Notes under the pieces: model-generated
The model's database searches: none
What the model was told of the DNA's origin: nothing
Seen by the model: the letters and a program-made list of their open reading frames with translations, nothing else
Made by a program: the position numbers and the translations under genes
From: an uncultured delta proteobacterium
Lineage (GTDB): Bacteria; Myxococcota_A; Polyangia; Polyangiales; Polyangiaceae
Assembly (NCBI GenBank): GCA_963841435.1
Contig: CAWJCS010000005.1
Coordinates: forward strand, 1,600,001-1,664,000
DNA length: 64,000 bases
Direction: 5' to 3'
Shown: piece by piece, positions 6,816 to 32,609 of the stretch
How the letters are laid out: the number at the start of each line of letters is the position of its first letter
How positions within the stretch are numbered: position 1 is the stretch's first letter

Positions 6816-6917
6816 AACGACCGAAAGAGGAGGCCTCGCGGCCGGTCGCGACGCCCGTTGGCTCCGGCCGCTTGTGCTTCCGTGCGCCGCCTGCTACGAG
6901 AGCGCCGTTCGCGCTAC

Positions 6918-7000
6918 GGGTCCGCCAACAGCGCAGCTTGAACTCCGCCAGGCCCGGAAGGGAGCAACGGTAGAGAAAAGCGGGTGTGGCGGGCCCACCA
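6918..7000 (+). ncRNA. ffs: Signal recognition particle 4.5S RNA
   Basis: Domain IV motif CCAGGCCCGGAAGGGAGCAAC with GGAA tetraloop; closing stem GGGTCCGCC/GGCGGGCCC; intergenic location. Confidence 0.92.
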
Positions 7001-7050
7001 ATTTCGCGTGACCGTGCGGCGTCTCGTCGCTGCCTTCGCGGAACACGGCA

Positions 7051-28391: not shown

Positions 28392-30011
28392 CGACGGGGC
28401 GCCACACCCTGCGCCCGGAGCCAAGGCACCGGTCCCAGCCCTCGCCGGGCGGTGTGGACGACGCGTACGCCGGCCTGCTCAGCGGCACGCGGCGGCTGCA
28501 CCTCGAGCAGCGCTTCGAGCGCGAGGCGTGGCTCGCGGCGCTCACGCTCGAGGACAAGGACGATCTCTTGTTCGAGCTCGAGGTGCTGCTCAAGGCAACG
28601 GCCTGCTACTCGAACCCGCGCAACCACCCCGGCCCGCCCCGCCGCACCGCCATCGTGGGGCACGATTTCCGGCCCGCGCTGCAGGTCTTTCGCGACGGGC
28701 TCGAGCGGGCGATCGCCCTCGCCCGGCAGCTGCTCGGTCCGCTCGATCGCGCCTTCGTCTTCCATCGCTACCTCGAGACCGTGTTGCCCGAGGACAGCGC
28801 GCGCGCCCGGCTGCTCGTCGAAGGCGCGCACCAGAACGTCGCCCGCGAACAGCCTGATCACGCTGCGCCACGGCCTCACGGCGGCGAACGAGGTGGTCGA
28901 CGGCGTGCTGCGCGTCCAGCGCGTGCCGTTCCGGCTCTTTCACGCGCTGCTCTCCACGGTCTACCGCGAGGTCGATCGCAGCGCGTTCTTCAATCCCCTG
29001 AACGCGCTCGAGTTTCGCCCCGAGTTCGACCGCATCAAGTCGGCCCAGGTGCTGGATCTGATCCGCAGCATGCCGGGCGTCGAGGCGCACCGCCTCGTCG
29101 CGCTCACGTTCTTGTCGCTCTTTCGCATGCTGCGCTACCTCTCGCTGCTCGAGCACATCGGGGCCGAGGGTGCGCAGCGCCGACAGCACGTCGGTAGCGC
29201 ATACCTGGTGCTCAGCGTGCTTCGCTCCGACGCGCGTGCGCTCAGCGACCACCTGCGGCAGCGCGCCGCGGCGCTGCTCGCCGACGGCTTCGAGCGCGAC
29301 CTCATGCTCGTCCCCGCGAGCTCCGTGCGCGAGCGAGCGTCGACGCTGCGCGCGGCGGGACACCACCTCATCGGCATCAAGAGCGCGCTCGAAGGCATCT
29401 CCGGGAGTCTCCGCCTCGAGCTCCGCCGGGCGTTCCAGCACGATCTCCCCGAGCCGGGCGTCAAGAATGCGCCCGCTTTCCGGCGCTCGTTGGTCGGCAC
29501 CATCGAGAACCTGCGCCCCGCGCTGCAGAACTCGATTCTTTTCCTCGGCAAGGCGCTCGGCGTGAGCCTCGAGCACGGTGGCGTCTTCGACGACCAAGCC
29601 GCGCGCCGGCAGACGAGCGAGCGACTGCGCCGCGACGTGTGGATGTTCGCCCAGATCGTCCGAGCGTTTTTTTCCAAAGCGCAGCACTCGCCGACCGAGG
29701 ACGGCTGGGCGCCGGTGCAGGGCTTCCAGTACGTGCGGGAGTTCCTCGCGTACTTTCGCGCCATGGGCTATCCGCTCCTGCGCTCGGCGGACTACCCACG
29801 CATCGACCTCTTCATGGCCGCCATGACGCGGCTCGAGGACACCGACCTCGTCGACCCAGCTCGGCTCGAGGACGCCATCGACGAATGCGTCGCCTTCCAC
29901 GGCTTTCTCACGCGCCTGTTCGACGACATCTCGAAGCGCGACGAGCTTTCGGGCGTCGCCTTCGATCGCCGCGCCGCAGCCGGCGCGCTCAAGCTCTATC
30001 TCGGCGACTGA
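28388..30011 (+). CDS. Large alpha-helical hypothetical protein (apparent +1 frameshift at ~28835)
   Basis: GTGA-coupled to the upstream gene. The protein-like frame runs to GAHQ and continues as TSPANSLITLRHG in the next frame; removing one A gives 541 codons. Confidence 0.75.
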
Positions 30012-30402
30012 GCGCTGCAACCGCGGGCGCTGCCGTCGGCGGGCTCGAGTCCGGGGGCGCGACCGAGCAATCCAACGTCGATGCACCGCGGAAGGATGCT
30101 TGCGCATCCGTCACTTCGCCGCGGGCGCCGCTTCTCTCATCGCTCGATGGGGAGCGATGGCAACGGACGCCCCTCGGGGTTTCATGCCGAGCACGCGGGA
30201 TGGGTACTCATTCGCACCCACCCGCGTGCTCGGCTCCGAGGCTGGGCCCTTGCCCGGGACCTCGTTGGCCCGGGGCGGTGATCGACTAGGTCGACCACTG
30301 CCCCTGTCGGCGCTCGCAATTGGCCTAGCGAGCTTCGCCTTGGCGAGGCTCGCCAGATTGGGAAGCCAGCGAACTCAAAGCACGAGCGCGCCAGGCTTCC
30401 CC
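30012..30402 (-). ncRNA. Candidate large structured RNA or 3' UTR of unknown family
   Basis: At least six hairpins tile the region, including a 14-bp perfect stem (30186-30199/30221-30234) and a GCAA GNRA-capped stem on the minus strand; no credible ORF. Confidence 0.55.
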
Positions 30403-30407
30403 ATCAC

Positions 30408-30524
30408 TCACTTGGCCTTCTTGCGGCGCTTCGCCCGACGCTTGCCCTTCTTCTTGGCAACCTTGGGGGCCTTCTTTGCAGCAGCCTTACGTGCAGTCTT
30501 TGAACGGGTCTTCTTTGCAGCCAT
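30408..30524 (-). CDS. 38-aa Lys/Arg/Ala-rich histone-H1/protamine-like small basic protein
   Basis: MAAKKTRSKTARKAAAKKAPKVAKKKGKRRAKRRKKAK; GGAGG 9 nt upstream; GCT/GCA/CGT/GTT codons unusual for this window and typical of highly expressed genes; too short for the ORF track. Confidence 0.85.
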   Translation of the reverse strand: MAAKKTRSKTARKAAAKKAPKVAKKKGKRRAKRRKKAK

Positions 30525-30587
30525 TTCTCGATGCCTCCCTTTGTTGGGGCCGGCTCTTAACCGAAACCCCTAGGGTATGTTGCAAGA

Positions 30588-30628
30588 CGTATATTGCCAC
30601 GTATGGGTGTCTGTCAACGAAAAAAATT
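30588..30628 (-). promoter_or_regulatory. Sigma70-type promoter for the small basic protein
   Basis: TTGACA (30617-30612), 18-nt spacer, TATACG (30593-30588); upstream T-tract resembling an UP element. Confidence 0.6.
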
Positions 30629-30853
30629 CAGCGGTCGTATGGACGGCGCCTAAGCAGGCCGCATGAACCATGCAACAATTGCGTGGTGCGCACCCGTTTA
30701 GTTCCGGTCACCCGGCCGCGCGAGTTTTCTGGCTGCCCTGTACGAGGAGAGAAAAAGCTCGCTTGCTCGGGCACTTGACGCGTCACGTCGGATTGTCTCT
30801 AAGGGGCTCGAGGCAATCAAAGCCTCCACGAAAAAACTGAGGACTTGCCCCCC

Positions 30854-31669
30854 ATGCTCGACGCTCGCTCACTTCGTTGGATCTGCACCTTGCTCGCGTT
30901 GACGCTCAGCGCGTGCGGCTACTCCCAGGAAGAATGGGACCAGAAGGTGCGTGAGAACGCCGGCCTGCGTGACCAGCTCACGACCCAGCGCCAGGCACAC
31001 AAGAAGTGCGAGGCGGACTACGCCACCGCGCTCTCGCAAATCGACGAGCTCAAGCGCCAGCTCACCGAGCGCGGCGTCAACCTCGAGAACATGAGCGCGA
31101 GCCTCGCCGAGCAGAAGAAGGCGCTCGACGAGTACGCGCGCCGCACCGCTCAGCTCGACGCCATCCGCAAGCGCTTCGAGCTGCTGCAGCAGAAGCTCCA
31201 GAAGCTCACGCAGCTCGGTCTCCAGGTCGAGGTCCGCAACAACCGCATGCTGATCCGCCTTCCGGGCGACGTGCTCTTCGACTCCGGTTCCGACCGGTTG
31301 AAGAAGGAAGGCGAGAGCATCCTGCTGCAGGTTGCCGAGGTGGTCCGCACCGACGCCGACCTCTCGAAGCGCAACTTTCAGGTCGCGGGCCACACGGACG
31401 CCAAGCCGCTCAGTGGCGGTGGGTTCCGCGACAACTGGGGCCTTTCGGCCATGCGCGCGCGCTCCGTGCTCGTGCTGCTCACGACGCCCGTCGACAAGAA
31501 GGGCGGCGGGCTCGACCCCAAGAACTGGAGCGCCGCCGGCTACGCCGACACCGACCCCGTGGCGACCAACGACACGGACGACGGCCGCCAGAAGAATCGC
31601 CGGGTCGAGCTCGTCGTTCAGCCGAACGTCGAGGAAATGCTCAACCTGAAGAGCCTCGCAACGAAGTGA
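30854..31669 (+). CDS. OmpA/MotB-domain coiled-coil lipoprotein
   Basis: Lipobox LSAC; coiled coil; VLFDSGS, GHTD, NWGLSAMRA and NRRVE motifs. Confidence 0.92.
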   Translation: MLDARSLRWICTLLALTLSACGYSQEEWDQKVRENAGLRDQLTTQRQAHKKCEADYATALSQIDELKRQLTERGVNLENMSASLAEQKKALDEYARRTAQLDAIRKRFELLQQKLQKLTQLGLQVEVRNNRMLIRLPGDVLFDSGSDRLKKEGESILLQVAEVVRTDADLSKRNFQVAGHTDAKPLSGGGFRDNWGLSAMRARSVLVLLTTPVDKKGGGLDPKNWSAAGYADTDPVATNDTDDGRQKNRRVELVVQPNVEEMLNLKSLATK

Positions 31670-31676
31670 GCGGCTC

Positions 31677-32609
31677 GTGAGCGGCCACGCCGCCTCGCGG
31701 ATTGCCACGCTCGACATCGGAACCAATACAGTCCTCCTGCTCGTCGCCGAGCGCGGGCCCTCTGGGCTCGCGCCGGTGCTCGAGCGGGCGACCATCACAC
31801 GCCTCGGGGAAGGCGTGGACCGGTCGCGCGAGCTCGCGCCCGCGGCGCGGGAGCGGACGCTGCGCTGCCTGCGCGAGTACGCGGTCGAGCTCGAGCGCTT
31901 GGGCGTCGGGCGCGTCGCCGCCGTGGGCACGAGCGCGCTGCGCGACGCGCGGGGTGGTGACGAGTTCTGCGAACAGGTCCGCGCCGTGCTCGGCGTGGCG
32001 CCCACCGTGATCGCGGGGCGGCGCGAGGCCGAGCTCACGTTCCACGGCGCGCTCTCCGGGCTCGCCGTGACCGGCGACGTGGTCGTGTTCGATGTGGGCG
32101 GTGGCAGCACGGAGATCGTCCGAGGCCCCGCGGGCGGCGCCGTGGCGAGCGCAGTGAGCCTCGACGTGGGGAGCGTGCGGCTCTTCGAGCGCCACCTCGG
32201 AAACGACCCAGCGACGCCCGAAGAGCTCGAGCTCGTGCGTGCCGACGTGGCACGCGCGCTCGTCGACATCGACGTGCCGGGCGACCGCGCGACGCTGGTC
32301 GGTGTGGCGGGCACCGTGACGTCGCTCGCGGCGATCGCTCTCGAGCTCTCCGACTACGATCCCGCGCGCGTGCACGGTCACGTTCTCGAAGCGAGCGATG
32401 TGCACGCGCTCGCCGAGCGGCTCGCGCGCATGACGCTCGCGGAGCGTCACGCGCTACCTGGCCTCGATCCGCGGCGCGCCGACGTGATCGTCGCCGGCGC
32501 GCTGATTGTCGAAGGCGTGCTCGACGCTATTCGCAGCGAACGGCTCGTCGTCTCCGACCGTGGCGTGCGCTGGGGTCTTGCCGAAGAGCTCGCCAAAAGC
32601 AGCCCCTGA
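31677..32609 (+). CDS. ppx: Ppx/GppA family phosphatase
   Basis: DIGTNT, TRLGEG, TSALRDA, DVGGGSTE and GVRWG motifs. Confidence 0.92.
   Translation: MSGHAASRIATLDIGTNTVLLLVAERGPSGLAPVLERATITRLGEGVDRSRELAPAARERTLRCLREYAVELERLGVGRVAAVGTSALRDARGGDEFCEQVRAVLGVAPTVIAGRREAELTFHGALSGLAVTGDVVVFDVGGGSTEIVRGPAGGAVASAVSLDVGSVRLFERHLGNDPATPEELELVRADVARALVDIDVPGDRATLVGVAGTVTSLAAIALELSDYDPARVHGHVLEASDVHALAERLARMTLAERHALPGLDPRRADVIVAGALIVEGVLDAIRSERLVVSDRGVRWGLAEELAKSSP

Follow-up and report, generated by a model that had tools for sequence, protein, structure and literature searches.

Stem-loops 3' of a coding sequence can act as mRNA stabilizers, as do the repetitive extragenic palindromic (REP) elements of Escherichia coli operons and the "positive retroregulator" of the Bacillus thuringiensis cry gene. 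Short coding sequences also occur on dual-function RNAs such as RNAIII/hld and SgrS/SgrT, each of which encodes a small protein. Here we describe a locus that resembles both arrangements in part. It lies in a 64,000-nucleotide (nt) stretch of the genome of an uncultured Polyangiaceae bacterium (GenBank assembly GCA_963841435.1, contig CAWJCS010000005.1, positions 1,600,001 to 1,664,000), which we call the window and from whose first letter all coordinates are counted. On the minus strand of the window, a gene for a 38-amino-acid (aa) Lys/Arg-rich, histone H1-like protein (30408..30524, stop codon included) is followed by a run of stem-loops. The unit is probably a monocistronic mRNA for this small protein, with a structured 3' untranslated region (UTR) that serves as both stabilizer and terminator.

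Among bacterial proteins of H1-like composition, RNA binding has been described for PhaF of Pseudomonas, whose disordered KPAA-repeat region binds specific RNAs and mRNAs directly (PMC12818456). Hc2 of Chlamydia is described as varying in length (PMC2848022), and the gene studied here does so in a similar manner.

Results

A small H1-like gene conserved in Polyangiaceae

The first-pass annotation of the window, made from the letters and a list of open reading frames (ORFs), had described a promoter with an upstream T-tract, a ribosome-binding site (RBS) and a 38-aa ORF with 15 Lys, 6 Arg and no acidic residues. All of these are present on the minus strand. The ORF runs from an ATG at 30524 to a TGA stop at 30410-30408, and a hand count of its product, MAAKKTRSKTARKAAAKKAPKVAKKKGKRRAKRRKKAK, gives the same composition (15 K, 6 R, 0 D/E). 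BLASTN with 30000-30640 matched 21 of the 24 other genomes of the genus, and all 20 distinct genus loci carry an orthologous ORF of 31-51 aa. The genus orthologs share the N terminus MAAKKTR(S/T)K(S/T)A(R/K)KPAAKKAPKVAKK, and their consensus, MAAKKTRTKSARKPAAKKAPKVAKK, contains a KPAA motif where the peptide of the window has KAAA.

Wider Polyangiaceae loci were gathered by tblastn with the 519-aa protein of the convergent downstream gene, and the best 80 were taken. At 57 of these a Lys-rich ORF of 31-127 aa occupies the same position; contig ends truncate several of the remaining 23. The Sorangium ortholog, of ~125 aa, is rich in Lys, Ala and Pro, starts with MAAKKTAKKPAKK and ends in an acidic SDESE tail. 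Growth of the orthologs is by short tandem repeats, such as the roughly ten KKKAS units of locus L093 and the KKKVA/KKKAT units of L059. Repeat-expanded ORFs are also seen at L069, L064 and L065. Forms of 31 aa and forms of 127 aa alike follow the same promoter.

Substitution was counted in 40 distinct sequences across their first 25 codons: the variable columns at codon positions 1, 2 and 3 number 9, 5 and 23 of 25 each, and codon differences from the consensus comprise 184 synonymous and 65 nonsynonymous changes. Because of this third-position variation and synonymous excess, the peptide itself must be under purifying selection, and the pattern of substitution indicates that the 38-aa ORF is a real gene. 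DNA of the promoter and N-terminal region is present in 163 of 301 family genomes, the host genome (G000) included, and in 42 of 89 genera; the 163 include one match in a genome flagged unpublished (G316).

Database searches with the protein returned little. A 46-aa ortholog found only 2 database proteins. The 38-aa peptide matched 0 families in Pfam and NCBIfam and 0 sequences in PDB at E values up to 10, the 127-aa Sorangium form had no protein match at E ≤ 0.001 among 8000 scored candidates, and an exact look-up of four sequences in the protein collection found none of them (one, from L065, rested on a guessed range). Against the profile hidden Markov model (HMM) NF038053 (hist_H1_lk_Burk), the 127-aa Sorangium ortholog scored weakly (E 0.0089, 16.3 bits; cutoff 80). 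A literature search gave nothing specific on a stand-alone myxobacterial H1-like protein, which is no proof that none is in print. A ribosomal protein of the bS22, Thx or bL36 type was considered and rejected, given no Pfam or NCBIfam match and 0 PDB sequences; orthologs that reach 127 aa with repeats and an acidic tail also make that identity unlikely.

The earlier description of the peptide as histone-like thus holds for a real gene whose product is H1-like in composition, with no HMM reaching its cutoff. The proposal of a new nucleoid system does not survive the comparison: the unit is a short version of an H1-like protein gene that is spread across the Polyangiaceae. We regard the gene as a minimal new member of the loose H1-like kind with an N terminus of its own; its first 25 residues and its promoter, both conserved, mark a separate Polyangiaceae lineage. 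Judging from its sequence, the peptide would bind nucleic acid.

The promoter-like block and leader

Upstream of the ORF, the minus strand carries 7 T residues (30626-30620), TTGACA (30617-30612), an 18-nt spacer and TATACG (30593-30588). Together these make up a promoter-like core that extends from the T-run to a conserved stretch that would be transcribed first, GTCTTGCAACATACCCT (30572..30629, minus strand), read directly and from the genus alignment. The block of ~58 nt (30629-30572), from the T-run to just beyond the -10 element, is nearly invariant across 20 genus loci, and its core, GTGGCAATATACGTC, is retained in the Sorangium loci. A consensus promoter scanner called 0 sites at the small gene because the -10 hexamer lacks the final T; "promoter" is therefore our interpretation, based on the conservation of the block. 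The variable 5' leader that follows (30525..30571, minus strand) contains the RBS GGGAGG (30539-30534), which stands 9 nt before the ATG and is conserved in the genus alignment. Folding of this leader gave no significant structure (z -1.1).

A second conserved block, ACTAAAC..GTGCGC....GCAA....TGCA, lies at 30671-30702 (minus strand), ~55-85 nt upstream of the -35 element and between the small gene and the OmpA-like gene. It is common to most genus loci and may be an operator or the promoter of the divergent neighbor.

Structure downstream of the stop codon

The first-pass annotation had also reported a run of stem-loops beginning about 6 nt after the stop codon. Indeed, the first hairpin starts at 30401, 6 nt past the stop, and nine hairpins span 30401-30034. 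Folding of 30000-30410 (minus strand) gave -244.6 kcal/mol against -191.4 ± 7.1 kcal/mol for 100 dinucleotide shuffles (z -7.5, 0 as good). When intergenic gaps of 250-600 nt from this genome (7.8 Mb, 68.8% GC) were compared by GC-adjusted folding per nucleotide, 0 of 663 equaled the gap of the small gene, on a baseline of 663 out of 816 gaps, folded on the plus strand only and delimited by a crude home-made gene caller that covers 77-80% of the genome, so that missed genes are included. Because of the z value of -7.5 and the 0 of 663 gaps as structured, the observation stands, well beyond chance. The next most structured of these crude gaps, G000:C2:983030-983289 and G000:C3:754847-755359, have GC-adjusted residuals of -0.111 and -0.092 kcal/mol/nt (-0.133 at the small-gene locus) and may contain other structured RNAs.

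The ORFs within the gap are short on the minus strand (28-45 aa) and unconserved on the plus strand; no credible one lies there, as had been noted, and a coding gene inside the gap was rejected. A retron or CRISPR reading of the gap was also rejected. Rfam 15, run over the window at gathering score, gave no match at the locus, its only match being a signal recognition particle (SRP) RNA elsewhere. With E values up to 10, the locus drew only sub-threshold microRNA-type matches (best mir-1549, at 26.2 bits where the gathering score is 91), and the loci of 9 relatives gave 0 matches, in agreement with the earlier failure to place the RNA in a known family.

Dispersed copies, as of a REP or miniature inverted-repeat transposable element (MITE), had been named as a concern. 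The element is not such a repeat, because BLASTN of 30000-30640 against its own genome found only the locus itself and its own palindrome; the exact hairpin-arm pair occurs once in the genome, and a covariance model (below) likewise shows the region to be single-copy. Arm-pair patterns were uninformative once a mismatch was tolerated in each arm, since a genome of 69% GC yields hundreds of matches by chance, and they were left unused. The genome has 91 perfect 12-bp hairpins whose loops measure 3-12 nt; a scan for these was dropped, as its loop limits exclude the small-gene locus.

The conserved terminal hairpin

A single RNA of ~370-390 nt had been proposed for the gap, and here conservation speaks against the proposal. 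BLASTN conservation in relatives ends exactly at the stop codon (query 10-234 of 641, i.e., 30631-30407), and the stop codon and the convergent gene lie 246 to 980 nt apart within the genus and 140 to ~2200 nt apart among the wider loci. When the gap was searched by sensitive BLASTN, a single piece recurred, 30186-30234, which is the hairpin that we call H5; it alone is conserved. On the minus strand H5 (30186..30234) folds into 21 pairs with one bulge, at -45.8 kcal/mol, on a stem base of CCGAGCACGCG/CGCGTGCTCGG. It is present at 19 of 19 untruncated genus loci and at 35 distinct loci overall, 4 of 39 picks having been dropped as doubtful (L038, L040, L061 and L090).

In the 35-row alignment of H5, 91.5% of cells are in standard pairs, and 12 of 16 pairs have changed on both sides. 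None of 500 column shuffles equaled the observed value, and when the partner was slid by 1-3 columns only 31-49% remained paired. At the H5 site, a covariance model of H5, R1, scored 47.5 bits when read on the minus strand as against 32.6 bits on the plus strand, with the window's own sequence among those in its seed alignment; the next best place in the 7.8-Mb genome reached 25 bits (E 0.01). R1 matched at E ≤ 0.01 in 27 of 31 genus genomes (G000 included), and its top match was on the contig of the small gene wherever that gene was located.

H5 is, as a terminator should be, a GC-rich stem-loop downstream of the gene and on its strand. At 14 of the 35 loci the stem is followed within 15 nt by 5 or more T residues (e.g., GTTTTGT), and the T-rich side is always the peptide-sense side. 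A consensus terminator scan found no terminator-like site at H5 in the window. These features suggest that H5 has the anatomy of an intrinsic terminator whose U-tract was lost in several lineages, including that of the window.

H5 divides the gap into a 3' UTR of ~222 nt (30407-30186) and ~175 nt (30185-30012) of further hairpins. By folding, the latter comprise H6 (30172-30123), H7 (30122-30083) and H8 (30077-30034), a distal set (30034..30172) that we assign to neither strand: it folds at -81.2 kcal/mol on the plus strand and -83.9 kcal/mol on the minus strand, and in relatives the distal region is more stable on the sense strand of the 519-aa gene in 11 of 29 cases. H7 has a GCAA loop if read on the minus strand. 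The hairpins of 30185-30012 may belong to read-through from the small gene, to the 3' end of the convergent gene, or to both.

Strand asymmetries of the 3' structure favor the strand of the peptide

Several asymmetries bear on whether the palindromes upstream of this division act as RNA. Sense-strand folds are more stable than those of the opposite strand at 18 of 19 genus loci, by a mean of 10.2 kcal/mol, and across the 19 loci there are 114 G-U pairs on the sense strand versus 74 on the antisense strand. Among 35 distinct 3' UTRs, UUCG tetraloops closed by at least 4 pairs number 11 on the sense strand and 0 on the antisense strand, and GNRA loops 11 versus 3. On these strand signatures, the 3' structure is an RNA on the strand of the peptide.

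The same counts weigh on a different explanation, in which the palindromes act as DNA, for instance as cruciforms bound by the H1-like protein, or are neutral, palindrome-generating insertions. H1 and high-mobility-group (HMG) proteins do favor distorted or four-way-junction DNA, and hairpins are gained and lost rapidly between relatives. Yet asymmetries of strand (18 of 19 loci in folding, 11 against 0 in UUCG loops, 114 against 74 in G-U pairs) are unexpected of DNA palindromes, and compensatory changes, which neutral insertions do not explain, maintain the pairing. Because of both we think an action at the level of DNA, or none at all, very unlikely.

Turnover of the inner hairpins

Between the stop codon and H5 the window has H1 (30360..30401, minus strand, -26.7 kcal/mol), which has no counterpart in the alignment of the closest relatives and is extra in this lineage, and H2 (30325..30356, minus strand, -22.6 kcal/mol), which is followed by GGCCAATTG. 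The base of the H2 stem (GGCGAGC...GCTCGCT) and the following CCAATTG recur at L003, L004 and L024 with a different upper stem; this homology was read by eye, MAFFT having left H2 unaligned to the relatives' proximal hairpin. H3 (30304-30272, -24.0 kcal/mol), H4a (30271-30257) and H4b (30255-30244) complete the set (30244..30304, minus strand), and BLASTN found no sequence conservation of them in relatives. In the alignment of the window's subclade, the terminal hairpin is the only one common to all; the relatives have a single proximal hairpin in common besides.

Pairing is kept up all the same. Measured from the stop through H5, the 3' UTRs of the 19 genus loci are 145-277 nt long and have z values from -4.5 to -13.4 (30 shuffles each). 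In the wider set, 38 of 57 loci have z ≤ -4 over the 220 nt that follow the stop. The median z over these 220 nt is -5.7 where the protein has up to 55 aa (n = 35) and -3.4 where it is longer (n = 22). A trade-off in which a growing 3' UTR offsets a shrinking ORF was rejected, protein length and stop-to-terminator distance being positively correlated (Spearman +0.41, n = 35). In one subclade (11 distinct sequences) the 3' UTR is made of three helices that directly abut one another (~165 nt). Their bases are conserved and their upper stems covary; 10 of 49 predicted pairs are compensatory, as in the series GUGAGC/GCUCAC, GUGGGC/GCCCAC and GUGAAC/GUUCAC. Hairpins upstream of the terminator are replaced from one lineage to another, yet pairing is retained.

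A separate or processed noncoding RNA acting in trans, either a small RNA (sRNA) derived from the 3' UTR or a dual-function RNA, would account for the strength of the structure, the RNA-specific tetraloops on the sense strand, the well-conserved architecture of the three-helix subclade and the lack of a match to known families. Such an RNA would be expected to keep its target-pairing segments, but no single-stranded stretch is conserved across subclades, and the number and identity of the hairpins vary between lineages. Moreover, a consensus scan shows no promoter-like site inside the gap, and the hairpin region is always linked to the small gene. For these reasons a trans-acting RNA seems unlikely.

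In a further alternative the 3' UTR would be the RNA partner of the peptide, which would bind the hairpins of its own mRNA in a feedback control or a stored ribonucleoprotein (RNP). The sequence conservation of the H5 stem base hints at specific recognition, and there is more structure than a terminator needs. The genus consensus also has the KPAA motif of the PhaF repeat region for which RNA binding is described (PMC12818456), although the window's own peptide has KAAA at that place. Against this reading, inner hairpins are swapped between close relatives, unlike a specific binding platform, and long-form orthologs exist without a structured tail. We consider an RNA partnership distinctly unlikely, and its more explicit version, in which the peptide recognizes the conserved base of H5 and the neighboring helices of its own mRNA in a feedback loop or a cotranscribed RNP, quite improbable.

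Neighborhood of the locus

The setting of the small gene is constant: a divergent OmpA/MotB-like gene upstream and the convergent 519-aa gene downstream. The former (30845..31669, plus strand; Pfam OmpA, 1.7e-15) is found at 19 of 20 genus loci, the exception, L017, being truncated. The convergent gene (28452..30011, plus strand) was delimited by ORF list, HMM search and synteny; 519 aa is its longest ORF, with an uncertain start. Its product has no family in Pfam or NCBIfam and 339 tblastn relatives among the genome contigs, Sorangium included at ~60% identity. It is a conserved Polyangiaceae protein whose gene always adjoins the small gene.

Two genes from the small gene, a Ppx/GppA-family phosphatase gene lies at 31677-32609 (plus strand). 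In Pseudomonas, the H1-like AlgP is reported to be associated with granules of polyphosphate (PMC9239181), and the phosphatase neighbor may be worth following, as a lead only. Elsewhere in the window, the bacterial small SRP RNA at 6915-7002 (plus strand; Rfam, 51.4 bits) is an ordinary feature.

Outside the window, a second very basic small ORF, of 35 aa (MAAKKKKAPAKKRRKAKAKAAPMPAPVKKAKRKKK), lies at G000:C6:1015327-1015434 (plus strand). TTGAC occurs in the region upstream of this ORF, its RBS is of the AGGA type and its stop is immediately followed by a strong GC hairpin; it may be a paralog of the small H1-like gene.

Discussion

The gene, the selection on its peptide and on base pairing, the strand bias, the single copy and the linkage are demonstrated by the present analysis. 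Of the six sequencing runs that a search listed, each with a small share (0.05-0.09), none is recorded as RNA. Among the options raised at first pass (an RNP, a processed noncoding RNA, or a stabilizing or regulatory 3' element), the last fits best. In the course of events that we propose, the conserved sigma-70-type promoter with its upstream T-run, a strong one, would drive a transcript from a start near 30583, with a leader of ~60 nt and a strong RBS. The mRNA would continue through the 38-codon ORF into a 3' UTR of ~222 nt (30407-30186) made up almost entirely of stem-loops. H5 (30234-30186) is the ortholog of the hairpin with a U-rich tail in more distant relatives, and most likely forms the 3' end of the mRNA, either by termination or as the point at which 3' trimming stops (~30186). 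The stacked hairpins may shield a short, heavily used mRNA from 3'-to-5' exonucleases and may prevent antisense transcription of the convergent 519-aa gene from the strong promoter. The H1-like polycation itself would be abundant and highly expressed.

Several observations weigh against a stabilizer and terminator. The window's own H5 has 1 T in the next 15 nt, and the classical U-tract is lacking at 21 of the 35 H5 loci. The 9-11 bp of the H5 stem base are conserved in sequence across genera, for which a terminator has no need, and five consecutive hairpins in the most structured gap sampled exceed what termination or protection usually takes. At the Sorangium-type loci with ~125-aa proteins, z for the 220 nt beyond the stop is near 0 in 6 of 7 and -2.3 at L090, so that the tail is not essential to the gene family. 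Finally, both the H5 covariation and the strand counts come from related genomes, whose kinship the statistics ignore. On balance, the evidence favors an unusually elaborate version of an ordinary function, the formation and stability of an mRNA end, over a novel ribonucleoprotein.

The locus adds to the Polyangiaceae a conserved and largely unannotated small gene, with 2 database proteins as against DNA in 163 of 301 family genomes. Its product is probably a major basic nucleic-acid-binding protein of the family, if the binding predicted from its sequence holds. The orthologs also form a clean natural series, since the promoter has hardly changed while the product of this one gene varies between 31 and 127 aa. 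The covariation and strand-specific RNA signatures make the 3' UTR a candidate cis-acting structure in a phylum in which mRNA 3' ends are little known, one that would be useful for annotation and expression engineering in myxobacteria. Were the RNA-partner reading true, it would extend RNA binding of the KPAA type, as in PhaF, to a stand-alone 38-aa protein, and feedback of this kind would set the level of a dangerous polycation.

Set beside the H1-like proteins, namely the C-terminal KPAA repeats of AlgP and PhaF, Hc1/Hc2 and NF038053, the small gene shares an extreme Lys/Ala/Arg content without acidic residues and, in its genus consensus, a KPAA/AKKA-type motif. As described for Chlamydia Hc2 (PMC2848022), ortholog length varies through the number of repeats, here from 31 to 127 aa. 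Unlike those proteins, the peptide of the window stands alone, is far shorter (38 aa) and falls below every HMM cutoff. With RNAIII/hld and SgrS/SgrT the locus has in common a short ORF on a highly structured RNA, but no conserved single-stranded seed was found in it, and its structure is wholly 3' of the ORF.

H5 resembles intrinsic terminators in being GC-rich, downstream of the stop and oriented with the gene, and in the U-rich tail at 14 of 35 loci. It differs from them in the missing U-tract of the window, a stem of 21 pairs, a conserved base and the four or five hairpins that precede it. With the REP and cry stabilizers the locus shares very stable 3' stem-loops on what is presumably a highly expressed mRNA and, as we propose, a block to 3'-to-5' exonucleases; unlike the REP family, its element is single-copy and is a stack of several different hairpins.

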